A DNA stretch of 64,000 nucleotides from Octopus vulgaris (taxonomy: Eukaryota): NCBI GenBank assembly GCA_951406725.2, contig OX597823.1, positions 73,036,001 to 73,100,000 on the forward strand, read 5' to 3'. The number at the start of each line of letters is the position of its first letter. The stretch's first letter is position 1. The notes under the pieces were generated by a model. It was not told the DNA's origin. It saw nothing but the letters and a program-made list of their open reading frames with translations, and searched no databases. Of the stretch, positions 1 to 61,976 are shown piece by piece. A program made the translations under genes and the position numbers.

Positions 1-1224
1 AAATAAATTATGATGGTAATCGCTGGACAAGATCTGATAGAATAGAGGGTTTAGATATAAAAATGGGGTTCAGAAAGAACAGTATATAGAGTTACATAGC
101 CTGGGCTCAAACAAAAGAATTTACATATATAGGTGAAGTTTCAAAACGCGATGGTATAACTGCATTTCAGCATTTCAAAGACAAAAAGTGCAACACATCT
201 CTCGACAACCCACCGAAAACAAAAGGCAACGCAACATCTGGTCAGTGACAAAAACTACGAACCCGTACAATACAAACACAAGAATATGCAATAAGACCGT
301 GTGTGTCTTACTGTACGAGAATGAATGGACTATCAGACACTCTGAGAATATTATGAGGAATAACCATATACTTAGCAAAACTCTCAAGGAATTCTTGAGA
401 ATATATTTAACACAGGATCTTTAATTAGATTATTAACATAAGTGAATAACATATCCCTGAATCCTTCTATAACCAGATGGGTTTCATATATCAACGTCAC
501 TATTTCTGTAGGGATTTATATTAACATATGCGGAAATACCCGTGTTTATCTATGATTGTTGAATTATCTTTCAACAATATGGTAAATTTTCATTTTTAAT
601 TTTAGCTTGTATATTATTGATTATCGTATTGATGATATATGTAACGTATATATGCATATATGTGTGTATTTGTGTGTACGTGTGTGTGTATGCGTGTGTG
701 TATGCATGCATGTATGTATGTACGTATGTATGTAGATGGAAGTGTGTGTGCTTGCATTTATGAATATAAAAGAATGGAAAGTGATTGCTTGTTCCTTAAC
801 CATTCAAAATTTTAATTACTAGCTTTATTTATCAGCTTATTTCATCAATAGACACACTTCGTCGTAGTGGGTGAACAAGATAGACATAATTGCCCGCAAG
901 CCCCTTGTATATCAGTTAGAGGCGAACTTTTGAACTTTTGTGGTCAGACGACCTAATGACCTTAGGAGAGTCACTAGTTAATAAGACATAAGGATCTGCA
1001 GACACAAATTATGTTAAATTATTGGTTTATCTAGGTTTTGATACCTTTTCCTTCCACTTTTGTTCTTTTTGCACCGCATTGCTTGACGTGTTTGGATTGT
1101 GGGTTTATGATGTGAGGGTATTTGGTTTCGTTTTAACTAATATCTAATAATGGAGTGATAATAATAGCATGAACGTGGGATATATATTCTGTGAAATAAG
1201 GCTTAATTCATTAAATATTTGTAC

Positions 1225-1356
1225 ATGCACCTGAAGAATCAGCTCTTACCAATATTTTTGAAATAACAACGATACGATCTATTATTTCATATATCATACA
1301 AAAATATTTCGGCAATGATCGTCTGTTAAAGTGAAGATGAAACAATTGTAGCGTTA
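1225..1356 (+). ncRNA. Type I hammerhead ribozyme motif with long helix II (slightly decayed)
   Basis: CTGAAGA at 1231-1237; helix II closed by ATC/GAT and extended by AATATTTTTG/CAAAAATATT; GAAA at 1339-1342; palindromic helix III ACAATTGT; GUA cleavage triplet ending at 1350; helix I GCAC/GCGT has one mismatch. Confidence 0.6.
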
Positions 1357-2015
1357 TGCAATAAAAACGTTTTGCTCAATATTTTATAGATAGTCATGTA
1401 TATATTCAATGGATATTCACAGATTCCTAAAATATCTTCAATAATAAGATTGGTACTTCACTGTGTGTGTGTGTGTGTGTTGGATTGTAAATATATACAC
1501 AAGAAAATATGTATGTTCAAATATCAATAATAGAGCCTTTCATAGCTCAACTCAACATACAATTAACATGTATTTCAACTTTATCGGGCACGTTGAATTA
1601 TACAGTAAATGTTGCCAAGTCAGAAACCTTCTTTAGTAAAGCCCCCTCAATATTGTTTATTCACCCAAAGCACTGCTAAAATATTTGGCACAAAATAGTG
1701 AAAACTATTTCCTTAATGTTCAGTCAAACGGATCTAATATTCTAACACATTGCAATTAATCATTTCACCTTGATGACAACATGTAGGAAAACTGAAATTT
1801 CATCCTCTCCCTTCTCAACACTTACCTAAGCATGGCTAAAATGCCGCGTCTTCTCTTTAAATTGACCAGACAAAAGCCAATACGAATAACTCCGAATAAT
1901 ATCGGATAAATGGCTTTCGAGGCTAGCGTTTAATATCGAACAGATATAAATATATAGAAGCAAAAGTGTGTGCATACATACGTGCATACACACACTCATT
2001 ATTCATACACGAAAA

Positions 2016-2059
<44 letters not shown>

Positions 2060-3410
2060 ATGCACTTACACACCAACCTCACGTACATACCCACTTACTC
2101 AAACGTCACACACAAACACGCTTTATGTCAGGAAACATTAACTACATTGCTACGTTTGCTCAGTTTTCATTTATGATCTGTAGACAGCAATTACATAAAT
2201 TTGTGTCGAGATTAATCTAACATTGAACGTGGAACGTATATGGTGATATATTTAGAATACATGTGGATATAGACAGAAATAATACACATCAAAGAGAATC
2301 AAACATATCCAGGTACTCAGATTCATTATGTATCATTTCTCACCTTACACACACACATATATGTATATATGCATATACATATAGTTTCAGTACGTACACA
2401 CCAACTTTTCATTCGGTGTACGATAAATACACAAAACAGCAATCGTAATTTTCAAAATATATCATTCAGAAACTACATACGTTCGCTCTTTCCGACATCA
2501 AGATTGGCGAATTCATTCACGCGAACTGAATAAATTCACAAATATTGGAATCGGAAATACATTCGATCAATAGAAACATTTCGCAATTGGTTAAATAAAC
2601 AAAAGAACTCTCATAACGACGTAAAAACAAAAATACGTATGTGCATGTATGCTATTACTCTACTGTGCATATGTATGTCTATAAAAGGGGAGTAAATCAT
2701 GAGCGACTAGTTCGCAGAGCGCAAAAAAATGATTTTGACATCTACTAGTATATAATTAATATCATAAAATCGGTATATTTATACATTTATACTTGCATAC
2801 ATACGTACATGCATTCATACGCGTATGCATAACTGCATATATACAAACATTTATATTCATACACACATGCATACGTGTACCGTAGAAGAATTGGAAATGA
2901 AAAGTTATACAAATGATACACTGTACAAAATACAAACACACACAGGCTAATGAATGTATTGCAGAATTGTATTAACGGTCGATCACATTAGAAGTGACAG
3001 TTTTACCGTCAATCGGTTCATTGCCTGATGAACTTGAGGTGGCTTAATATCATTATATGCTTAACCGATTGGCTGTGAAACAGGCCGGTATAATGTGAAT
3101 CAGATAATCCAGCATCTGAATAAAACTAAACATACACACACACACACTTTATATATATATATATACGTAAGTGTTTCTGTTGATCTCTGTATTACTTTAA
3201 ATATCTTTGCATGCATGCGTGCCAAAATTGTGTTTTTGTGAGTATATGTTTCTGTATAGGAATGTGCTCTTGGCGCATGCACCAACAACAATCTATGTAG
3301 GTCAATAAAAGCGTGTGTATATTAATATGCACATACATAATACGAAATAAACACACAGAAACACACGCACAAATATTGATACATTTATATATTGATATAT
3401 TTATAATCGA

Positions 3411-3640
3411 GGGCGGCGAGCTGGCAGAAACGTTAGCACGCCGGGCGAAATGCGTAGCCGTATTTCGTCTGCCGTTCTGAGTTCAAATTCTGCCGAGGTC
3501 GATTTTTGCATTTCATCCTTTCGGGGTCGATAAATTAAGTACCAGTTACGCACTGGGGTCGATGTAATCGACTTAATCCCTTTGTCTGTCCTTGTTTGTC
3601 CCCTCTGTGTTTAGGCCGTTGTGGGCAATTAAGAAATAGA
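3411..3640 (+). mobile_element. tRNA-derived SINE, family A
   Basis: A-box-like GCTGGCAGAAACG and B-box-like GAGTTCAAATTC, central TTTCATCCTTTCGGGGTCGATAAATTAAGTACCAG; near-identical to copies at 23.6 kb (-) and 62.7 kb (+). Confidence 0.85.
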
Positions 3641-3904
3641 TATATTTATAATCAATATATATGTGTGTGAGCTGAAATAATAGAAGTTACTTATGAGCAT
3701 TGAATTCTATCATGCATTGCCCCAAAATACATTGAGAGTTTTTTCATTTGAAAATACCTCAGCGGCACTCTTACTGAGCCTTGAAAAAAATTTGGGAAGG
3801 AACGATTTAATAGTTGCCCAGTGCATTTTGCGAATAACCTCAGGGGAATATAATGGGTTGCATCTACAAAAAACTATAAATAATATGTATGTATGTTTGT
3901 TATA

Positions 3905-4350
3905 TAGAGGTCGCGTAAGATTTTTTAGGACAAATTTCTTTTTAGAGAAAAGCTTACAAATAATAATAGAAAAGAAATTTATTAATGAAAGTATTTGTAC
4001 TATAAACTAGATTATAGTTTTTATATAGTCTTATTCAAAGCAACCATTCCTGCATTAATAACTGCTACCATGCGAGATTTGAATCTTCATGCCCGAAGCT
4101 CCTGCTTCACATCGGATATAACTTTGGCTATGGTAGGTTTCATAGTATCCTTAGTCTTATGGGGATGTTGGTTGACCTCTCAGCAATGCTCCACACATGG
4201 ATTGTGATCTGATGAGTTTGGAAATCAAAAGCTAGGTTTTTATGTGTTCGTGAAAATTGTCAGTCAACCATTTTTGAGTTGATTGAGGCTAATGTGATGA
4301 GGCAGAGTCCTGTTCAAACACGTACGGCTGGTTGTTGCTGGCTTTTTCGG
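3905..4350 (-). mobile_element. Tc1/mariner-superfamily transposase remnant (C-terminal part)
   Basis: Minus strand gives YVFEQDSASSH (FQQDxAPxH-like) and PNSSDHNP (PxSPDxNP-like) with stops and frameshifts. Confidence 0.55.
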
Positions 4351-5341
4351 CGTAAGCTTGCATGTTATGGTAAATAGTACATCTGTACGTGTCAACGAGT
4401 GAGTTGCAATGGTATCTGATAGGCTATGTGGTGTTTAAGTAAGCAGATGTCCTGTAGACTTTCAGTTATACGATTCGCTAACGTCCGTTACGATTTGTTA
4501 ACATCTTCAAAGTATCGGAGACTGCAGAACAGACATTTAAGACAGTAAATAATATCAACAGCGGTACAGGTGAATTAGCTAGGAGCAAGGAAGGTGCGGT
4601 AGGTGAGTTCAAAGAGGACAGCAAGTAAAGAAGTGCGTCGTTATGGAATATGTGAGCGGTAACAGACTAAGTGAAGCCGTCAGTGATTGCTTAGGATGAA
4701 CCATTGAAAATATAAGAGGTTTGTGTGGAAGTCGAGGGAGTGCGCTAACGGATAAAGCCACGGAACGGTGTTGCTTGGAGGTGGGAGGAATGTGAGTGCG
4801 GTGGTAGACGTTGTTGACGATAGCTACGACTAGACAAAATGGAAGGCAGCGAGTGAAGTTGTGTGTGAATGGCGATATAGGGAGACAGAATATTTTGCGG
4901 ATACACGCTCACACCCTGACATACACCCCGCCCCTTTCATATACACATTGCACTCATACATTTTAAGCATCAAATTTTGACACAGGTGTTGATGGATATT
5001 TGCTAAGCACTTTCCGGTATGATATTTTTATGATTTTCCTGTATGTAAAACATAGAAGAATGTAAATAGAAGAGATCATTGACATTCTCAATGACAGCAA
5101 CGTTGGATTTTACCGCAAGGAATTCTTGCAAGGCTTCTCTTGATAAATACAGAATATAATGCTAGAATGTAAAACAAAAGCTGCAAATGAAAGTTTATAA
5201 GCATTTGGTTCAATAATATCTATGTGTATATATTCACACAGAAATACAAGCACACGCAGATGAACCGATGCATACAACCGTATATTACATGCATACGCTT
5301 CTCACACAAATCTATCTATTTAGTTATAAGCTTATCTCTTA

Positions 5342-5935
5342 TACAGGATGTTCGTGCTAAATTTGAGGATTTTTAGGTCTTCTATTTTACAGAAATTGCT
5401 TGATGTATCGGTGAACAACCAACGGCGTTGGAAAGCATAACGTTTACAATTGTAGGTGAGAAAAAGTTTGCTGATACGGAAGACGGGACGTCATCTGAAT
5501 ATCGGAAAGAAGTTACCTGTTTCATGTTGATTTGTATCGGAAACCAAAATACCGATATCATGCCTGCTGTTCAAGGCTCTAGGAACGCTGTAAACGCTGC
5601 AAGATGTGAGATGGACATCGGGAAATCCAAGTTCCCTCAAATTGTGATTGTCTTTGGGTGTGTATCTGGTGAAGACGACTTCATTGTGTCCCACATCTTA
5701 GGACAGGAACTCAGGATCAGTTTAAACAGCTATATGAAGCTGTTGGAGTCGGTTTCCAAACCCTGCCGCTGGAAAGTCATATGTGCGGCAGTAGAATTGG
5801 GTTCCTTACCATACCACCCGAGAGAGCAGAAATTGTTTTCAAAGAATTTTTATAACTTCAACAGCTTCAATTTCTGGCTTCGCAATACCCTCGATTGTAA
5901 TCCCATGGATTGCAATTCGGGAAATTTGGAGGCCA
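5342..5935 (+). mobile_element. Tc1/mariner (DD37D/maT-like) transposase remnant
   Basis: ORF 5428..6018 contains KFPQIVIVFGCVS, YMKLLESVSKP and FWLRNTLDCNPMD (WPxxSPDxNPxD-like); begins with TACAGG, a TIR-like start. Confidence 0.6.
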
Positions 5936-6064
5936 GAAATTGTACTTGTTCTCCACAGGTTTGTGTATTATGTTGTACTTCTAAAATATTACTTTATCTT
6001 CTTATTATAAGTACGTAACCGGTTATATTACACTAATACATACAAAGAGACATATATATGCGTA

Positions 6065-33851: not shown

Positions 33852-34120
33852 TGAGGTATGTTTGCCATCTTAATATGGCTGACCACTAAGGGTGGGTGTT
33901 ACTGTAACTTGTAGCCCCAGGAGAACATCGTCTCCAGCTGGCTATTGACACATTTTCTGTGCCCTATCGGTATTGTGTCAATAGCCAGCTGGAGACGATG
34001 TTCTCCTGGGGCTACAAGCTACAGTAACACCCATCCTTAGTGGTCAGCCATATTGAGATGGCAAACATACCTCACATTGTCATGCAGTTACTGTTTATAC
34101 CTCATTCAGAGATTTATTAT
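33852..34120. repeat. Foldback insertion: 101-bp inverted arms, 21-bp spacer, 15-bp target duplication
   Basis: Arms 33852-33952 and 33974-34074; TAATCGAAATAATAT is repeated at 33838-33852 and 34121-34135. Confidence 0.9.
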
Positions 34121-34399
34121 TAATCGAAATAATATTTTTTGAAACCTTCATTTCTTCACTTTTTCAGTTTTCTCTTTACTTCAATATCTGACGTGTCTTA
34201 CAACTAACGATTCAATCATTCATTCTTTTCCGCCTATTCAGACATCCTGTATTTTATCCACCATTTACATTTGTTGCGTTTTACAATGCAGTTCCGGCAA
34301 ATCCTAATGGTTATCCGTGCTGCGCGCATGTGCATACCGTCAGTATTTCTGCGTGTCATGTGCACTGAGTGTTTTTCAGAGAGAATTCTGTGTGTTGTG

Positions 34400-36230
34400 G
34401 GGGAATAAACATTTTATATGTCCTTCTAGATCGGATATCTGTATACTTAGCAAAAATATTCTGGATATATACACATTCCTTGATTAACGAAACTACTTAA
34501 ATTTAATTTATGGTATAACTCTTTCCAAGTTGAAGATTGGGTCAATTCTATCGATAATAAACTAAACACTAAATTTATCCAGTTTGATATCTGAAGCTAT
34601 TATTCCTCTATCAATCCTATCATCCTTGATAAAGCCCTGTGGTTCGTACATAATAAAGCCGGCCTACCTCGCGTTGAAATTGATATTGTCCTAGCGGCAA
34701 GAAAATCTATCATCCAATTTTATAACAAACTTTGGATTCGTAAAGATTGACCAAATTACTTCGATATCCCTATGGGAAATAAGTACTCAGCACAGGTTTC
34801 GGATTTGGCCAGAATTTATATCCCATTTGAAATAGAAGACCAATTGACTAATATATTCGGTGGTTTATATCGTGATGACTGCCTCCTTTACCTACGAAAT
34901 AGCTCTAATCAAAAACTACGAAACGAAATTTAGTATTTCCTTCGATGATGATAGAACTAGGGTTAACTTCTTCAATTTTACCCTAAACTTAAATACAATC
35001 TTGTATTTCTCATACCAAAACCTTCAATTAACCTGAAATACATCAGCATCTTTAGCAACCACCATAACAATATCACAAAAAGTTTGTTTAAAAATATATC
35101 GCTTAGAAAATCTAAATTGCACGACAACGAAACCGTTTTCAATATTAACGCAGATTTTATAACTCAGCTTTACATAAAGTAGAATATAAGGAACAAATTA
35201 CATATTATAACTAATTTGTATCTAACACTCCCTCTAATCTTCTGATTGATGGTAATTACGTTCTTGATAATAATTACAGTTGTAATAATAACAATAATTA
35301 TACTATTAAAAATAACTAATTATAACATTATTAACAGTAATAAACACAATAACAAGAGTACTTATTTTGTTCCTACCGTCGTCAATAATCCAAATAAAAC
35401 CCCATTTCATCAAAATATCCATATTCCTTACCTTCGTAATCCCAAAAAACAAACAGTCAAAGGGAACTAACTAAGTCTCCTCATCCTTTTTACACTTCTT
35501 CAAGTTTTTTAATAACAAATCTCGCAATGAATCACGCAACCATAGCAAAAGTATCCAAACAAGTAAAACTTGTCTTATTTCGACAAGCTATAGAAAGAAA
35601 ATTCCCCATTAATTCAAGGTACCATTCCATTTTCAACACACACATCGTATCAGGATAGGTTTCTCTTACACCACCAATATCTCACAAATTATATCATCAC
35701 ATAACATCGATACTCTAAAAGGTAATAGTGTCTCTCCTAATAGCTCTAATAACTTTAATAATATTATCAATATTAACGATAATCTCTCCTTAAATGATAA
35801 TATTAATGACATTAGATCTTGCAACTGTAGCCCAAATAAAACCTGTGTCCTAAATGGAAATGGCCGTATTAAAAATATCGTGCACCAATGCAAGTTTACC
35901 TCTGGAACCAAGGATTTTTCTATACTGGATTATCTGCAACGGATTTGAAATCCAGACACGCGAACCATTTTTCTACTTTCATATACAATCGTAAGCGTAT
36001 TTCCACAAGAATTATTAAGCTAATCTGGCACCTTAAAGGCTCTAACAAACTTTTTACTTTAGGTTGGAAACTTTTATCCAGATCGTTCCCTTATGACAAA
36101 GGGAAATCTCTTTGTCCTCTCTGTACGGAAGAGCAATTTATTATCCCCTTTTCCAAACAGAAAACAATGAACACGTTTACGGAGCGAGATTTCAGGTGTT
36201 CACATTAGGAAAAAGAACAACTTCGCTTTT
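34400..36230 (+). mobile_element. Decayed Penelope-like retroelement (RT + GIY-YIG)
   Basis: QFDI..YYSSI, FDIPMG...SAQVSDL and GLYRDDC (about 34860-34885), then CNCS...CVLNG...NIVHQC and FYTGLS..KSRHANH..TF (GIY-YIG); multiple stops and frameshifts. Confidence 0.85.
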
Positions 36231-36699
36231 TATGAATAGCATCTACCCCGTGCCTAATAATTTTTGCAAATTATCTTTTCTTTTTATAATTATTACTTAA
36301 CATAAACTTTATTTCTGCCTTCATCTTTTCTTCCCATATTTTTATCTATCCAAGTTTGCCCGTAACTTCCCCTCCTCTCTCTCTCTCTCTAATTTAACTA
36401 TTTTCTCCTTTCCACTTCCCTATTTATCTATAACTTCACTGCTCTCATCATAACGGCATTTTCAAATATTAGCGTTCCCTTCACATCTTAACTTTCCATA
36501 TATGAATATGCATGTATATCTGTTTTTGTTATGTATGCGTACAAATGTATGTATGTGTTTATGTAAATATGTGTTTGAGCAAGTATGTGTTTGGGTGTAT
36601 CTATACATTGGGCATGTGTATGATCTTGTGCGTATATGCGTATGTGTAAGTGTATTTATGTGTGTAACTACGTGGTCGTACACGTCTATAAATGTATGC

Positions 36700-36742
<43 letters not shown>

Positions 36743-36910
36743 TGTTTGTATATATATGTGTGTGTGTATGTATGTGTGTTGTGAGCATATGTATGTGTGT
36801 ACGTGTACGTGGGTATGTATTTGTCCATGAGTGTATATATATATATATATAACATTATTGGTGAATTGAAGAAATGGAGCTGAACGCAGATTGAACAGAA
36901 ATCGTTTTAT

Positions 36911-36997
36911 TTCATTCTACACGTGTTTCGAAAGGCACAAATTACCAAAATCCGATGGAATAATGGGACCATATTGTGTCTTTCTCTTCAGGAAGAA
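36911..36997 (-). ncRNA. Type I hammerhead ribozyme motif (antisense arm copy)
   Basis: Reverse complement of the 37179-37266 motif; TCTTCAG at 36985-36991. Confidence 0.8.
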
Positions 36998-37178
36998 AAT
37001 AGGAAATCCGTTGGAAAAACAAAAACAGAACAGAGGCGGAGCAAAAACAAATCGAACACCGGTTCTCAACATACACTGATAAACAGTTTCGCCATGGGCT
37101 CTTAGGAGCATAGTTCGATTTGTTTTTGCTCCGCCTCTGTTCTGTTTTTGTTTTTGTTTTTCCAACGGATTTCCTATT

Positions 37179-37266
37179 TTCTTCCTGAAGAGAAAGACAC
37201 AATATGGTCCCATTATTCCATCGGATTTTGGTAATTTGTGCCTTTCGAAACACGTGTAGAATGAAA
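37179..37266 (+). ncRNA. Type I hammerhead ribozyme motif, intact core
   Basis: TTC-CTGAAGA(37185-37191)-GAAAG...CTTTC-GAAA(37247-37250)-CACGTG-TA-GAA. Helix II is 5 bp plus the CACAA/TTGTG extension, helix III is the palindrome ACACGTGT, and the GUA site ends at 37258. Confidence 0.85.
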
Positions 37267-37475
37267 TAAAACGATTCCTGTTCAATCTGCGTTCAGCTCC
37301 ATTTCTTCAATTCACCAATAATGTTCTAATTTCAATTATCCGAACCAACGCACGGTTGCAACACCATATGGTTGTACCTCCAACCGTGCTGTTTTACTGC
37401 TGTGATTTTTGCTACTAAGGTATCGGTTAAACTTTTGATTAATCTACTACAAGATTATTCATCTTTCTATTTCAC

Positions 37476-37512
<37 letters not shown>

Positions 37513-37524
37513 TCATGGACAAAC

Positions 37525-37556
<32 letters not shown>

Positions 37557-37732
37557 TTGCATAAGCAGCCTGTCTCCATGAAACCTGAAAGAGACGAGCT
37601 TCTTTTAAAGGCCCAAGAAACACTAAGTTGCAATTTTAAATAATGCATGTAAATGTAACCAAATGTGACGATTGTCTTTTTGTTTCCTTAGTCCACTCAT
37701 ACACACACACACATACACACACACACACACAA

Positions 37733-37777
<45 letters not shown>

Positions 37778-38250
37778 TGTATGTATATACATGCATGTGT
37801 GTTTGCTTGTGCTTATAAAATTAACTACACTGAAATTAATTTTTGAAATCTGAAACTAAGTGGTTAATACTTATGCATTATTTATCTAAAATTAATAAAT
37901 ACATTCATCAGCATTAAAATTCCATTAAAGGTAAATAATTTGAGAAGAATAAAATGTCATTATTCACCTTATTAAATATCTGTGTACTTTGTATATTATA
38001 AATTTTATTAAAGTAATTATTTATGTTTGAAAATTATGCATTTTCTGGCAATCATTAAGACTCACTAGAAGTTATTCTTATTAAATATCACCATTAATAT
38101 TTCGATTAGCTTAAAATGTCTATATTACGTAAATGACACTACACACATCTCCAACTCAACTAACTGAAGCTTAGATATCATACGGCCATATACGTATACA
38201 TATATGCATATATAAATATAAGTGTGTATGCATGTATGTATGTATGTATG

Positions 38251-38301
<51 letters not shown>

Positions 38302-38536
38302 TACCTATGTATGTATGCATTTATGTATGAGGAGAATTCACAAAAAACAAACGACAAAGACAGATGGTGTAGGCTATAAAAACAGACGTATTAGTATAAC
38401 GTTCGGGAAGTGAAAATTTCTTTAACGGTTGGAGCCTAAGCTCTTCCAGAGAAAGGAACACCGTAAGAAAGATGGAGGGAAAATAAAGAATGTGTAGTGG
38501 CTAGCGATATGCCTGAGTATGTATGAATATTTTTTG

Positions 38537-38586
<50 letters not shown>

Positions 38587-38849
38587 CACACGCTTTTATA
38601 AATACGTATATGTGTGTGTGCGTGTATGTGTGTGTGTGTTTGGGGGTAGTTCACATATGTAAAGATATGGTGATGCAAAGAAGAAAATAGAACTCAAAAG
38701 ATGAGTATATATATATTGTATTAATAACCCATAAAACTTATGGAACCATTCAAGGACCGAAAGTTTTGTGCGTTCAAGTCGACCTCTGTTTTATCTTCCA
38801 TCATTTAGGGAACGATAAAATAAGTGCCAGTTGAATGCTGGGACAACGT

Positions 38850-39410
38850 ATTCGAGTCTCGAATGTATTTACACATTCTTCTATATAGTCTCATTCCGTT
38901 TTGATGCACTTGGTCCATTGGTCCACAAACTTGCATATTCCCTCCAAGAAGAAGGCTTTGGGTTGATCATGCAACCATTTGTGTACCGCTTCCGTCGCAT
39001 CTTCTTCCGTAGGAAATCAACGGCCCTCGTACACCGTGTTTGAGCGGTCTAAAGATATGATCGTCGCAAGTGGCGAGATATGGGTTGTAGGCAGAGTATT
39101 CCAGCACCTAAAAACCCAATTGGTTAATGGCTTCAACGGTTTGGGCGGCCGTGTGTGGTTGTGCATTGTCATGCAACAACAAAACTTTCTTCGACAACAA
39201 GCTTCGTCGTTTGTTACCAATTGGTGGCTTCGGTTTGTTGGCCAGTAAAGCACTGTATCTTGCACTGTGAAACCCAGAATGAAAAACGCTCAAACCTCGA
39301 TCATGTGTCCACAGAAGTACCTACAATAAGCACGCACGCGCAGAAAGTATTGTGACAAAAATAAAGATATGTTATGGTGGGAGTGCAGATGAGTTTTGAC
39401 TTACCCTCAT
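38850..39410 (-). mobile_element. mariner transposase C-terminal remnant
   Basis: LLLHDNAQPHTAAQTVEAINQLGF followed by YNPYLATCDHIFRPLK (YSPDLAPSDYHLFGPLK-like). Confidence 0.8.
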
Positions 39411-40100
39411 AGATTCCCAGCTGATTCATTAATCTTCCATTCCCTTGTTTCAAAGCCTGTTTTTTCCAGGTCAAACAAACCTATGGAATTAATATTACAC
39501 TGTAATCCTCGTATCTAGATACTTTGATGTTTGAATCTGACCACATTATATTCTTGCACTTTTCCATATAGTAACGCCGGATTGCATATAATCCAGTAAC
39601 ACTCCCGTGATGTTTACTTTGTCACGTGCACATAAAAGTGACGTGTATATTTATAACTTCATGTATACATCCCAGCGTGAAATATAGAACTATGTCGATG
39701 GCAAATATGTATAGGATATGTATACTTACTTAAATACATGAACATTGATTTTTTTCACATTGTTATTCGACATCAGGTTGTTTTGCATTATCATATATAT
39801 TATTAGCGCTCTAAAATTTGATTTTCTATATTTCATTGACCAATATGCTAACATCTTACTAAAATGAAGAAATTTTGTCGTTATAACTACATAATATTTA
39901 TGTCCATCTTTATAGTCGTTTCTCATACTTATAAATATTTTTTCAATATTTGTCTGCTACAGCATAACGGTTTAAGTCGCAACATACGTAGTTAAAGTAA
40001 TATAGAATATGAAATTCAATTTATTTATATTGGCATAACTTTCTGAGTCTCTTTTCCACAAATCTTTTCTATCCCTTAATAATATACACGGTTACGTAGT

Positions 40101-40158
40101 CTGTTAAACAGTAACAGCTGTTAAACAGTAACAGCTGTTAAACAGTAACAGCTGCTAA
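40101..40158. repeat. 17-bp tandem repeat (CTGTTAAACAGTAACAG, about 3.4 copies) at the LINE 5' junction
   Basis: Read directly. Confidence 0.9.
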
Positions 40159-40159
40159 A

Positions 40160-41875
40160 ATTGAGGACCCTTATCAACAGAGTCAATTATTTGCCGAGGC
40201 TTTTTCAACTATTTTCAAACAAGATGATGGTCGTGAACCCCCTCCATTTGTTAGATCGGTACCTCCAATGCTTCGATTGGTCATCACGCGGGACGAAGTC
40301 AAACGTGTTATTCAAGGCCTCGATGTCAACAAAGGTCACGGCCCTGACGGCATACACCCACGGGTTATCAAAGCGTTGGCTCCGGTCATCTGCGAGCCCT
40401 TAACACGACTATTCAATATGTCATTGGCGACGGGTGTTATACCTGCAGACTGGAGAACAGCGATAATCTGCCCAATTTTCAAGAAAGGGAGCCGCGAAGA
40501 CCCGCTTAACTACCGACCGGTTTCCCTTACATCAATTATCAGCAAGATGTTCGAAACCATCCTTAAGAAAAGTATGATGCTCCACCTCCTAAACACAGCC
40601 TCTACCTCTGATTCCCAACACCGCTTCGTGCCGAAGAGATCATGCTTGACCAACCTACTAGTAATGGAAGAATTGGTGACGCGCATCCTCGATGATAGTG
40701 ATGCTGTTGACATCGTTTTACTGGACTTTGCCAAAGCTTTTGACTCGGTAAACCACCGCCTATTGCTTGTCAAGCTTCAAGCATATAGTTTCCATCCGGA
40801 TATTGTACGATGGGTTGGTGCCTTCCTCTCAGATCGCTCCTTCCAAGTCCAAGTTAATGGTTCGTGGTCCGACGTCTCCAGTGCGAGTAGTGGCGTGCCT
40901 CAAGGTTCAGTGCTTGGGCCCTTGTTGTTCTTAGTCTTCATAAATGACTTGCCTGACGACCTCACGCAACACACCCTTCTATTTGCCGACGATATCAAAC
41001 TGGTCGCTCCTCGCGGTAATATAGAGGATCTTCGTCGATGCCTCCACCAAATTTGGAAGTGGTCTAACAATTGGGACCTGTGTCTGAACGTGTCAAAGTG
41101 CTGTCATCTGCCTGTCGGCTCTACTCCTGCAACTCAACTTGATTTCGAGCCGGGTCGTCTGCTGCTGGAGAGGACCGATCAGGTAAAGGACCTAGGTATC
41201 TTGGTGGATTCCTCCTTTTCGCCTTCGGCCCAGTGCGTCCATGGTGCCAACAAAGCACGCAGAATTCTGTTCTTGATTCGACGGTCATTCGGAATGCTCA
41301 CAGCAGCCATATTCCTACCACTCTATGTCACGCTGTTGAGACCCATATTGGAGTACGGGATTCAAGCCTCTTCTTCTTATCTCCTCAAAGACATACAGCA
41401 TCTCGAAAGAGTCCAGAAGCTGGCTACCCGCATGGTTCATGGTCTCAAAAATGTGTCCTACGAAGAAAGGCTGAGGACGCTCGACCTTTATCCTCTAGAA
41501 AAACGCCGCCGCCGTGGTGATCTCATTCTCGCCCACAACATCATAAGCGGAAAGTGTAACCTCTCGAAAGAGCTGTTCTTCACTCCTGCTCCAGAGCGTC
41601 GGCTGCGGGGTCATTCCGAAAAGCTCTACCTGCGACGATTTCATCTCAATCGAAGGAGAGGAGCTTTCTCCGTCCGGGTTGCGGATCCATGGAACAAGCT
41701 GCCAGACGAGATGGTGAAGATGCCGACGACCGCTTTGTTCAAAGCCTCCCTTGACCTCAAGTGGCCTGAACTCTTTACATGAACACCACCCTGTACTTAA
41801 CTCCATGTCCCCCTACATGGCCTTGCTATTTGCTTTTGAGCCAAATTAACTAACTAAGTAACTAACTAACTAAAA
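40160..41875 (+). mobile_element. 5'-truncated CR1-group LINE with (AACT)n tail
   Basis: GC-richer block with an open RT frame, a short 3' UTR and the tail AACTAACTAAGTAACTAACTAACT. Confidence 0.92.
40268..41782 (+). CDS. Non-LTR retrotransposon reverse transcriptase (ORF2 C-terminal part; endonuclease lost)
   Basis: GPDGIHP, NYRPVSLTS, LDFAKAFDSV, GVPQGSVLGPLLF, LFADDIKL, KDLG and LERVQ motifs; the frame is also open upstream to about 40160. Confidence 0.92.
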   Translation: MLRLVITRDEVKRVIQGLDVNKGHGPDGIHPRVIKALAPVICEPLTRLFNMSLATGVIPADWRTAIICPIFKKGSREDPLNYRPVSLTSIISKMFETILKKSMMLHLLNTASTSDSQHRFVPKRSCLTNLLVMEELVTRILDDSDAVDIVLLDFAKAFDSVNHRLLLVKLQAYSFHPDIVRWVGAFLSDRSFQVQVNGSWSDVSSASSGVPQGSVLGPLLFLVFINDLPDDLTQHTLLFADDIKLVAPRGNIEDLRRCLHQIWKWSNNWDLCLNVSKCCHLPVGSTPATQLDFEPGRLLLERTDQVKDLGILVDSSFSPSAQCVHGANKARRILFLIRRSFGMLTAAIFLPLYVTLLRPILEYGIQASSSYLLKDIQHLERVQKLATRMVHGLKNVSYEERLRTLDLYPLEKRRRRGDLILAHNIISGKCNLSKELFFTPAPERRLRGHSEKLYLRRFHLNRRRGAFSVRVADPWNKLPDEMVKMPTTALFKASLDLKWPELFT

Positions 41876-56960: not shown

Positions 56961-57059
56961 CACTCAAGGTCTGTATCGATCTGAGAATATAGATAAGGTG
57001 CCGAATATGGAACTAGGTGATTGGATGATTGTGGCGTAAACTTCATACGACTAATAAAC

Positions 57060-58690
57060 GCATACGACAAATAAACGCATGCAAGATAGCCACAGACATA
57101 ATAATCAAAGCCCCTACTCTTAATGATCTCAAACTGAGACCTATAATAGCTGGTGCCTCATATGAAACCCAGTGTCTCAGTAACTTTTTAGATACCCTCT
57201 TAAAACCACTCCTCGAGCATGCCAAAAGCTATATAAGAGACGAGCTGGGTATGCTCAATCACCTTCCTATAATAATAAAGAAAAACACCCTACTAGTATC
57301 CTTTAATGTAGTCAAATTCTATTCCAATATCCCCCACAACCTAGGAATAGAGGCAATTCAATTCTGGCTGGAGAATTACCCCCAGTGAACTCCCACATCG
57401 CATGAAAACAGAATTCGTGATAGAAGGGCTAAAATTCATCCTGGATAATAACTACTTCGTCTTCAAATACAACTTCTACCGACAAAAATCGGGGACTGTG
57501 ATGGGTACCAGAATCGCCCCTCCTTTTCTAACCTAGTCATGGGATGTCTAGAAATTAGTCTTTATCGTAAGGATCTAGAAAGATACGGCTCCCATTTTCC
57601 CTCTACATAGAAAATAACTGAAAGAGACACCTGGATGATTGTTTCATTCTTTGGTATGAACATGTAGAAAAACTTAAAGAATTCCAAGCACATTTAAATG
57701 AACTTGACGTAAACATTCAATTCACAATGGAATATAGCCAGCAACAACTTGCCTTCCCAGACGTCCTCATTAAGAAATCTAACAACGTAATTGAAACAAA
57801 TATATATACTATAAGCCTACAGACTCCAAGCAATATTTACCGTTCCACTCATGCCACTCCAGACACACCAGAATGAATATCCCATTGAACCTAGCAAAAA
57901 GGATATGTACTATAGTTTCTAATGCAATCACCAGAGACACACGACTACATGGACTAAAGGATACACTCATCACCAGAAACTACCCACCCTCACTAATTGA
58001 CATATGCTTTCAACGTGCCCTTCAACTCAACATCCAGGAACGCAAACATCCCAAATTAAAGAAGGATTTACAACCAAAAGCCCTACCATACACCTCCACA
58101 CACAACCCTCTCAACAACGAAGCATTTGACGCCATCCTTCAACACATTCCCCTGCTAAAAAGGGGCCACATAATGAACTTAGTACTCCAAACAGACACCA
58201 TCATAAAAAGCAAGAGACAGCCCAAATCTATGAAAAGTCTCCTAACACAAGCCCGAATACGCTCAAGAACACAGAAGCCGTCAGTAAAAAAATACAGAAG
58301 ACCCAACTGTGGGATATGCGTCAATTTAGTTGAGCGATGAGAGTTCTCCTTCAAACAGGGACAACGTTTCACAGCGAAAAGCAACTTCACATGTGCTTCG
58401 GAGAATATGATATACGCACTAACCTGCTCTGGCCAAACAAAAAACAGTCTACATAAAAGAATGGCTCTGCACAGATCCCAGATCAAAATTTCCCCAAAAC
58501 AGAAAAATAGCATTCAGCCAACACATAGACATTTGCGCCAATAACAAAAATCCAAGCTTCAGAATTTTCCCCCTCTACCAATTCAGGGACGATACAAACT
58601 GTAGCGAACGAGTAAAGAGACTCGCTTTAGTAAAGAGACTCGCTTTATTACAAAATACAGATACCTTTTGAACGCGTTTATAACAAACGA
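57060..58690 (+). mobile_element. Decayed Penelope-like retroelement (RT + GIY-YIG), second family
   Basis: LRPIIAG, LVSFNVVKFYSNIPH, FYRQKSGTVMG, HLDDCF, IQFTME, YYKPTDS, NIPLNLAKRICTIVS, RPNCGIC and NMIYALTC motifs across frameshifts. Confidence 0.9.
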
Positions 58691-59064
58691 TATATCCACC
58701 ACGGCCTTAGAATAACACAAATACACACGCAAATATTAAAAATGATACACTCAAGAGATTCCCGAGAATTTATTAAAAAACAGTCACAATCACTTCTATA
58801 ATCCATAACGAGTCAATTTTAGGTCACATGCCCATTTAACACCTTACTGCTATCATACTACCTATATTCCTTCTTATTCTCCCTTCTCTGTCTCCTTCTT
58901 CTTCTTCGTCTTCTTCATCTCCGCCACCTCCTTCCTAATTTTACCACTATTGCTATTTAGAATAAGACCTACGCAAAATTTATAAACGAAACATTCAAAA
59001 GAGATGTTTCAGGAATTCAATCACTACTGCCATCCACATCGGATCACTTGCGGGGCAGTTAACC

Positions 59065-59667: not shown

Positions 59668-60346
59668 AAGTTAAAAGTTATCGGTAAACGTTTTTGATTT
59701 TCACTCTCGATAAATTCATCCCCTTTTGTGTTCCCAGCACTCGGCATCTTAATTTAGGAGCCCTTAATTGTATAACTACATGAATAATATTTTTTCTATA
59801 TGAATAATATTTTGTCTTATGACTAATTCGTCTTTTGTGCTGGGCACCTGGTAGTAAATAATATTACTACCCTTCTTGTTTATATTCGTATATTACATGA
59901 TGGATTTATACGTAAAATTCTTCCCGGCATGCCCTATACTGCCGTGTAAATTTTGCGTCTGCGCAGAGATTTGAAAAGTTAAGATCTGCTAGTAGTCGGG
60001 TTCAACACATGGTCCCACATCGCTGCAGACCTCGATTAAATTTAGGCGACTCGCTGATGAAGCTAGCCTTAGCAAACATATTCTGTGTTTTGCTAGAAAG
60101 AAGCAGAAACCGCGGTTCGAGTTGTAAAAGTTATCGGTAAACGTTTTTGATTTTCACTCTCGATAAATTCTTCCCTTTTTGTGTTCCCAGCACTCGGCAT
60201 CTTAATTTAGGAGCCCTTAATTGTATAACTACATGAATAATATTTTTCTATATGAATAATATTTTTGTCTTATGACTAATTCGTCTTTTGTGCTGGGCAC
60301 CTGGTAGTAAATAATATTACTACCCTTCTTGTTTATATTCGTATAT
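59668..60346 (+). mobile_element. Non-coding 453-bp unit in 1.5-mer tandem containing a hammerhead (retrozyme / Penelope pseudo-LTR-like), inserted in (TA)n
   Basis: 59672-59893 is repeated at 60125-60346; the hammerhead lies immediately before the second copy; TA tracts on both sides. Confidence 0.8.
60046..60125 (+). ncRNA. Type I hammerhead ribozyme motif
   Basis: Helix I GCGACTCG/CGAGTTGT; CTGATGA at 60054-60060; helix II (A)GCT/AGC(A) plus inner hairpin TAGCAAACATA/TGTGTTTTGCTA; GAAA at 60106-60109; palindromic helix III ACCGCGGT; GUU site ending at 60117. Confidence 0.8.
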
Positions 60347-60361
60347 ATATATATATATATA

Positions 60362-61971
60362 CAGTTGCGGCCAAAATGTTCAGAACGGCATTGTTTTCGT
60401 CAGAAAAGTAGGTATAAGTTTTTATTAAAGTTGTTTTATATTCTATAATTTTCAAAGACAATAAATACGATATGAATTGGTATTGTCTGAGATTTTGGTG
60501 TAATTTGAATGGACAATACAAACGTTATGGATGATATAGTTATTTACTGCAAAACCTAAGGCGGCCAAAACGATTAGAACGGTTGAAAAAATAACAAAAT
60601 AATCAAAAAGTGACAGAGAGTGCTGGAATTATTTCATATTTAGTGTGAAGCCCTTTAGCTTTAATCAAAATTTGACATTTTTGACTGCATGGCGAAATTA
60701 AATTTTCAATTTTTTACTGGGTGATCTTATCCCGTTCTTCCCGAAGAGCATTTCATAATTGCTCGGTTGTTTTAGGATTTCTGGCTTTCAAACGTTCTCC
60801 TAGAATATTCCACACATTTTCAATAGGATTGAGATCTGGGCTTTGAGCAGGCCAATCCATATCAATAACCTTTTCAGCCTTGAGGAAGTTCATGACCACC
60901 TTAGCCTTGTGACATGGGGCATTGTCCTGCATGAATATGGGTGGTCGCATAGTTGAATTTCTCAGCACAGGCAAGACATGATCTTTTACAAGTTGTTTAT
61001 AAACTCCTGCATTTACATTTCCATGTAATCGCACCAAAGGGCCCACAACATCTCCAGATATCATCTCCCAAACCATGACACTTCCTCCACCGAATTTAAC
61101 ACTAGTCTTAAGGCATTTAGGTGACAATTTTCCACCTGCTTTTCGACGAACGTACTTTTTCCCATCTGAGTCAAATTACATATACTTAGATTCATCACTG
61201 AAATGCACCGTTCTTGAGACCACAACACATGTTCGGAGGCAAAGGTAAGACGACACTTTTTATTCTTGGAGCTGATCAGTGGCTTCACTGCAGGTGGTCT
61301 TGCTTGTAGGTCATGTTTAACTAAAGGACTAGACACAGTTTTTCGAGATAAAGTTTTCTTCAGTACAATGCTCATTTCCCGAGAAACAGCAGCAGCAGTT
61401 TTAAATCTGCCCTTTTTAACCAACTTTACCAAAGCGCGATCTTCTCTCTTGGTCGTTTTTCTTGGCCTACCTGTAGACTTTCTTGCTTCACACGAACCAA
61501 AATCATCGTAGACCTTAAGAATACCGTTAACAACACTTTTTGACTTGTTAACAATCTTTGCAATAGACCTAATACTTAAATTATCCTTCTTTCGAAGCTT
61601 AATAATCTGCTGACGAATTGGTAACGGAGTAAGTGGCTTTATATTAACAAAGTACACTGCAGATATTCTTATTAATGTTTAGTAAACGAACTGTCACGTA
61701 AACAAATTCAAAACATTAGAGTTCAACGGTTAAATATACTAAAACATGGAGTAAAAGCAACCGTTCTGATCATTTGTCCACCATGGGTTTTGCAGTAAAT
61801 CACTAAATCATGCATAACTTTTTTATTATCCTCTCAAATTACACCAAAATCTCAGACAATAACAAATAATATTGTATTTATTGTGAAAATTATAGAATAT
61901 AAAACAACTTTGATAAAAACTTATACCTACTTTTCTGACGAAAACATTGCCGTTCTGAACATTTTGGCCGC

Positions 61972-61976
<5 letters not shown>
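60362..61976 (-). mobile_element. Tc1 (DD34E) DNA transposon with ~225-bp IR/DR-type TIRs, inserted in (TA)n
   Basis: CAGTTGCGGCCAAAATGTTCAGAACGGCA... at 60362 and its reverse complement ending at 61976; TA flanks. Confidence 0.95.
60633..61657 (-). pseudogene. Tc1 transposase, frameshifted near 61210 with a premature stop at 60753
   Basis: Paired-like HTH and GRPRK, FSDESK, GGGSVMVW, QDNAPCH and SPDLNPIENVW; 34 residues counted between the second D and the E. Confidence 0.92.

Follow-up and report, generated by a model that had tools for sequence, protein, structure and literature searches.

How two hammerhead motifs on opposite strands came to lie within a single foldback, and why the host DNA on either side of this foldback is itself mirrored, are the questions raised by positions 36813-37530 of the stretch of DNA analysed here (64 000 nucleotides in all, referred to as the window). 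From left to right, the locus consists of a 21-nt host flank (36813-36833), a (TA)9 tract (36834-36851) whose last base is common to the end of the inverted copy that follows, this inverted copy of a repeat end (36851-37057, minus strand), a 55-nt spacer (37058-37112), the right arm (37113-37325), about 155 nt of additional sequence, a (TA)15 tract (37479-37509) and a second 21-nt host flank (37510-37530), which mirrors the first and leads into a (CATA)n tract; both TA tracts form part of the likely insertion target. The inverted arms of ~207 bp reported by the sequence-only reading are confirmed, with 36851-37057 facing 37113-37325 and 205 of 206 aligned bases identical between 36852-37057 and 37113-37324, apart from a single 6-nt insertion in the right arm. 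The structure is asymmetric: the direct copy (37057-37479, plus strand), a likely pseudo-LTR covered by related contigs across 37057-37480, is longer than the inverted copy by 55 nt at its 5' end (37058-37112) and by ~155 nt at its 3' end (37326-37479), and about one base is common to both copies at the central junction, 37057. Since the inverted copy is shorter at both ends, it was not the template. The last 423 nt of the element are present, and no coding frame is seen in them. The locus is genuine and, as a retroelement footprint, ordinary except for one small feature that is not random, the mirrored flank; in our judgement it is fairly probable that it comprises head-to-head 5'-truncated copies of a high-copy hammerhead repeat placed in (TA)n by what was likely one insertion of a Penelope-like retrotransposon, with a separate snap-back event at the flank.

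Judged from its core and its potential pairing, each arm carries an apparently intact hammerhead motif, on opposite strands, as had been claimed. The core, CUGAAGA...GAAAC-ACGU-GUA, lies at 37185-37258 on the plus strand and at 36918-36991 on the minus strand. The plus-strand motif spans 37175-37268, comprising stem I, the core segments 37185-37191 and 37247-37258, a long stem II and a 2-bp helix III; the identical minus-strand motif spans 36908-37001 (core 36991-36918), and the 95 nt around the motif do not differ between the arms. The core pattern occurs three times in the window versus 0.07 expected, the third match belonging to another element at 60054. Stem I forms nine of ten pairs and stem II ten of 11 with G10.1-C11.1, while helix III consists of two pairs and a four-base loop inside a self-complementary 8-mer (37250-37257). 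The triplet GUA ends at 37258, where H17 is A37258, and the cut is predicted after this base. The CUGANGA / GAAA / UH core, the G10.1-C11.1 pair and the open helix I are those of a type I hammerhead. Rfam gave no match to the window at the gathering score, and none of its 38 matches at E<=10 is to a hammerhead family, so that the assignment relies on the core motif and pairing; the matches to microRNA precursors, all far below the gathering score, were discarded as reflecting merely a long hairpin. Paired hammerheads on opposite strands are not new, as a 2014 study described dual minimal hammerheads of Schistosoma mansoni, separated by ~100-700 bp and lying on opposite strands, and ascribed them to truncated elements (PMC4209133). 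The present motifs resemble those described there in their spacing, long helix II and palindromic helix III region, but have no extra base between 9 and 10.1, a longer stem I (nine pairs) and a helix III of two pairs with a four-base loop.

The repeat was followed in public contigs. The wider stretch, in whole or in part, is present in 20 of the 24 runs listed, four of which were examined through their contigs: X1 and X2 (organism A), X4 (organism B) and X7 (organism C), which represent three organism labels and three studies, X1 possibly being the source sample. Contigs of the family were aligned to 36745-37695, with the microsatellite-rich flanks left out. Each of the four runs contributed 802 to 5429 contigs to this stretch; the summed depth, which is not a copy number, is mostly 1e5-1e6 on the element but does not exceed 96 on the unique right flank. 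The repeat is plainly a very abundant, dispersed and 5'-truncated family. Within the span of the hammerhead its core shows no variants at >=3% among family contigs, all eight variable places being confined to loop II or the distal part of stem I. Two scans of metagenome contigs with exact patterns returned no copies of the element.

The ends of the two copies at the locus can be read against this family. Loose ends before 37057 occur in all four runs; the family therefore continues upstream of this base and both copies are 5'-truncated. In X2 and X7, loose ends behind 37057 match the spacer in reverse complement, and from the loose ends of family contigs the 55 nt of 37058-37112 (plus strand) are seen as additional 5' sequence of the direct copy and not as foreign DNA. 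At the other end, copies that stop at 37325 and pass into (TA)n were found in at least five contigs of X4 and at least six of X7 (24 of 187 loose-end rows), and 37325 is the same base at which the inverted arm stops. The ~155 nt beyond it (37326-37479, plus strand) correspond to an optional 3' extension, or tail, which at this locus is borne by the direct copy only and is predicted to fold into a stem-loop. The letters found in the window at 37219 and 37326 account for ~28% and ~52% of the depth, respectively, in X1 but for less than 1% in X2, X4 and X7, which suggests a young subfamily and makes it likely that alleles lacking the insertion exist.

The 15 joints listed of 42, and three others, all run from an inverted arm into a direct copy, at different points. 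Each listed joint is found in one contig, at a depth of 36-477; the shorter side has only 23-29 letters at 85% likeness, and joints of this kind often come from repeats, so that some may be false, and letters between the two halves are unknown in six of the 15. Taken together, the listed joints indicate that head-to-head joins are a habit of the family. Among the 32 pieces listed of 8765, none bridges 37057 itself. Nor is a joint of an empty site among those listed, a negative without weight since the survey excluded the flanks. Short inverted patches do occur at joins, since the X1 joint from 37025 to 37084 contains a short insert of which the last eight bases are the reverse complement of 37085-37092. 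In three X1 joints the direct copy begins at 37084-37086, which may be a hot spot of truncation. Two further arguments were abandoned: as a joint may be read from either strand, it is uninformative which copy reaches further 5' at other joints, and, given the ambiguity of the frame, the first bases of the direct copy cannot be assigned to the end of a coding frame.

Comparison with known systems places the locus close to the endonuclease-bearing Penelope-like elements, four structural features of which are present: an inverted truncated copy, a one-sided tail, a type I hammerhead and a high-copy 5'-truncated family. As described for Penelope/Poseidon, Neptune and Nematis (PMC8557442, PMC3846280), a head-to-head inverted truncated copy is combined with an extension at one end, a microsatellite target and a type I hammerhead in the terminal repeat. 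An inverted 5'-truncated copy, a one-sided tail of 30-40 bp and a bias for (TA)n are reported in PMC8557442, whereas the tail here is ~155 nt; inverted pseudo-LTRs with direct duplications of 8-10 bp or none are reported in PMC3846280, whereas 21-nt mirrored flanks are seen here. These elements have a single frame with a telomerase-like reverse transcriptase and a GIY-YIG domain, whereas the copy at this locus is truncated at 37057 and has no frame, and no reverse transcriptase or GIY-YIG frame of the hammerhead repeat family is present within the 64-kb window. Naiad elements are likewise found in (TA)n targets as inverted truncated copies, at very high copy number in invertebrates, but are described as lacking a canonical hammerhead (PMC8557442), whereas the hammerhead core is present here. 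In the case of Neptune, which is characterized by a CX2-5CxxC linker before a C-terminal endonuclease and by microsatellite targeting, compatibility is limited to the (TA)n target and the hammerhead. Poseidon of Anolis carolinensis (PMC11167929) shares an AT-rich target, and its two-strand cutting and extension from two reverse-transcription starts correspond to the mechanism proposed below; stem II of its hammerhead contains the start of the coding frame and its tail is 30-40 nt, whereas no such frame is evident here. The Penelope-like origin with an inverted pseudo-LTR end that had been proposed from the sequence is supported by the head-to-head truncated copy, the one-sided tail and the (TA)n target, and this frame-free copy may be linked to an autonomous Penelope-like element.

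Several other explanations of the element were weighed against this one. The family might be a non-autonomous retrozyme, that is, a tandem repeat with a type I hammerhead that forms circular RNA, and not the end of a protein-coding Penelope-like element. This is improbable, even though no coding frame is seen, the combination of a 2-bp helix III and a tetraloop resembles invertebrate retrozyme hammerheads (PMC7229834) and retrozymes have been proposed to be derivatives of Penelope-like elements (10.64898/2026.07.22.740005). Non-LTR retrozymes are head-to-tail tandems of 150-450 bp units, each with a type I hammerhead, whereas neither 34000-40500 nor the window as a whole contains a direct repeat of the element, the locus has no tandem unit and a comparison by eye shows no repetition of the copy's 3' end in the upstream loose ends; moreover, inverted joins and a one-sided tail have been reported from Penelope-like elements, and the insertion machinery would be identical. 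That the foldback or its flanks are an artefact of assembly or of chimeric reads is most unlikely. Inverted repeats in microsatellites are hard to assemble (PMC8557442), and the survey, which excluded the flanks, lists no contig across the junction; however, a substitution and a 6-nt gap distinguish the arms, one base and six TA units distinguish the flanks, the end of the inverted arm is a recurrent terminus of the family and similar joins occur elsewhere in contigs of X1, X2 and X4, at depths of at least 36.

The sequence-only reading had favoured a single snap-back or template switch, in which the polymerase copied the new cDNA and then the target, yielding the inverted arm and flank in one run. 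One event would then account for both arm and flank, and the arms are nearly identical and have the minority letters of one subfamily in common; foldbacks from self-annealed cDNA ends have been described for L1 (PMC11702581) and self-priming has been proposed for Penelope (PMC3846280). This explanation is also improbable and we do not retain it. A single snap-back through element and target fits poorly because the 155-nt tail is missing from the inverted arm, so that the polymerase would have had to skip it exactly where other copies end beside (TA)n, at the recurrent 37325. In addition, the central junction offers only about one base in common, the TA tracts differ (nine versus 15 units) and the flank copies differ at one of 21 positions. 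Two separately primed cDNAs fit better than one snap-back.

On the insertion model preferred here, the endonuclease of the element would cut both strands within (TA)n, and each 3' end would prime its own cDNA, one from an inner start site (37325) and the other from an outer one (37479); the use of two start sites would leave the tail on one side only. Both cDNAs would stop early and then be joined end to end at 37057. The Poseidon protein of Anolis cuts and extends both strands of AT-rich DNA in vitro, and two reverse-transcription start sites define the tail (PMC11167929); the locus would be a tidy natural example of this two-start-site, two-strand priming model.

The mirrored 21-nt flank is the one unusual and unexplained feature, the rest of the architecture being already in print. 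Read outwards from the (TA)n tracts, 36813-36833 and 37510-37530 give 14 matches, one mismatch and six matches (20 of 21). Of the inverted-copy flanks that had been claimed, the mirror itself is real, but the claimed 28-mers include seven bases of the TA tract. The 14-mer of the flank is restricted to these two places in the window even when two mismatches are allowed, and under an order-4 model of the window an exact match of 14 bases has a probability near 2e-9. When the (TA)n ends of the window are compared in pairs (1406 in all), 11 pairs have at least 14 exact bases in common; ten of these are (GT)n runs, leaving the mirrored flank as the only complex match of this length. The mirroring is not due to chance. 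None of the remaining 36 (TA)n runs of the window is flanked by mirror sequences of more than five exact bases; pre-existing palindromes are therefore rare, which favours either a connection to the insertion or a preferential use of such sites. One mismatch in 21 for the flanks versus one in 206 for the arms is too few to date the flank. A mirror extending to ~46 nt, which would have made it much older than the insertion, was rejected, as beyond base 21 ten of 74 control ends score as well. Both ends of the element lie inside (TA)n, where a direct target duplication would be hidden, and target duplications within (TA)n are likewise described as not discernible in PMC8557442. No description of mirrored host flanks of Penelope-like elements was found in the literature searched, although this feature, or the family itself, may be on record in subscription papers or supplements.

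It is very unlikely that the 21-mer is not unique host DNA but the end of a repeat, or a 3' extension carried by the family, lying beside both TA tracts. The 21-mer begins with CA beside TA, and by eye it has nine of 14 bases in common with the inverted repeat end of a Tc1-like element at 60362; its start presumably resembles Tc1 termini. Only two copies, however, occur in the 64 kb even with two mismatches, both of these lead directly into a microsatellite, and where family copies break off at 37325 the 21-23 letters given of their loose ends consist of (TA)n only. Moreover, the flank is the same although the two copies of the element have different end points.

Taking the 21-mer as host DNA, the mirrored flank would come from an event separate from the cDNA synthesis: a broken end would fold back in the self-complementary TA tract, copy ~21 nt of its own flank and rejoin via the (CATA)n tract, producing a palindrome the centre of which takes the insertion. 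Snap-back primed by TA/AT, as proposed here, ranks with the commonest routes by which insertions arise at DNA breaks in flies (SD-MMEJ; PMC5728401), and local inversions and inverted duplications are described at L1 target sites (PMC11702581). Non-canonical L1 insertions and SD-MMEJ are thus alike in the short inverted flank copies made during processing of a broken end, but these cases concern human L1 and break-repair assays in flies, whereas here the insertion itself forms the centre of the mirror. We can only infer in which order the events at the flank took place: that the palindrome was made in the same break episode as the insertion is a tentative reading, to which we give a little under an even chance, and that it was made earlier is doubtful.

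A broader proposal, that breaks made by Penelope-like endonucleases in (TA)n regularly leave, or prefer, short host palindromes centred on the microsatellite, is unlikely. If it were true, mirrored flanks would be a recurring target-site signature of Penelope-like elements, missed since direct duplications are unreadable in (TA)n, as well as a clue to the priming and resolution of the two cDNA ends. The formation of inverted structures and the choice of microsatellites by these elements are stated as unresolved in PMC8557442, and mirrored flanks, if they recur across copies of the family, would provide a directly countable test of this step.

With regard to RNA, a transcript of either strand would carry one sense hammerhead only, downstream of its perfect antisense, so that read-through RNA would be expected to form a ~207-bp duplex that buries the ribozyme. 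The long double-stranded RNA previously suggested is borne out as a prediction, with a fold of -459 kcal/mol, fully paired arms and a z of -53 versus 20 shuffles. The suggested competition of this duplex with ribozyme folding is likewise upheld by the model, the hammerhead with its own antisense being predicted at -164.7 kcal/mol versus -13.4 kcal/mol for the ribozyme fold. Unconstrained folding of a single arm returned no hammerhead fold (z 0.0). Predicted pair probabilities in the monomer are 0.99 for stem II, ~0.10 for stem I and ~0.02 for helix III, and a dimer of the helix III 8-mer is predicted at -10.3 kcal/mol; the two hammerheads, lying on opposite strands, are unable to dimerize in cis. 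From these folding models, the locus is likely to be silent as a ribozyme. Related hammerheads are described as showing no monomer cleavage in PMC4209133 and PMC11167929, the Anolis Poseidon ribozyme requiring protein to cleave (PMC11167929), and other related motifs reach 22% cleavage in an hour, or better (PMC7229834). Since monomers of related motifs show little or no cleavage, poor cleavage by a single arm would be a weak refutation of the insertion model. Elsewhere in the window, a stop-free frame of 204 aa at 5404-6018, which is ordinary in composition, may be an exon; if the window lies within a gene, read-through of the foldback becomes plausible.

The window holds further elements. 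A second, unrelated element lies between two (TA)n tracts at 59668-60346 and is a partial tandem with a 453-bp period and a 222-bp direct repeat (98.2%); it contains a hammerhead-like motif at ~60047-60124 with a palindromic helix III region, although the base of stem II looks mispaired, and is retrozyme-like or pseudo-LTR-like. The neighbouring element at 60362-61975, also in (TA)n, has inverted ends of ~225 bp (88% over a 252-base alignment including TA runs), and its two minus-strand frames at 60753-61678 look to us like a broken Tc1/mariner transposase. A broken reading frame at 57030-58700 has no DNA similarity to the foldback element; it contains motifs that we take to resemble a Penelope-like reverse transcriptase, CxxC linker and endonuclease, and the one piece tested had no Pfam match. 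Finally, a 546-aa open frame at 40142-41782 encodes a LINE-like reverse transcriptase domain (Pfam RVT_1, E 3.2e-31), directly preceded by three tandem copies of a 17-bp unit at 40101-40159.
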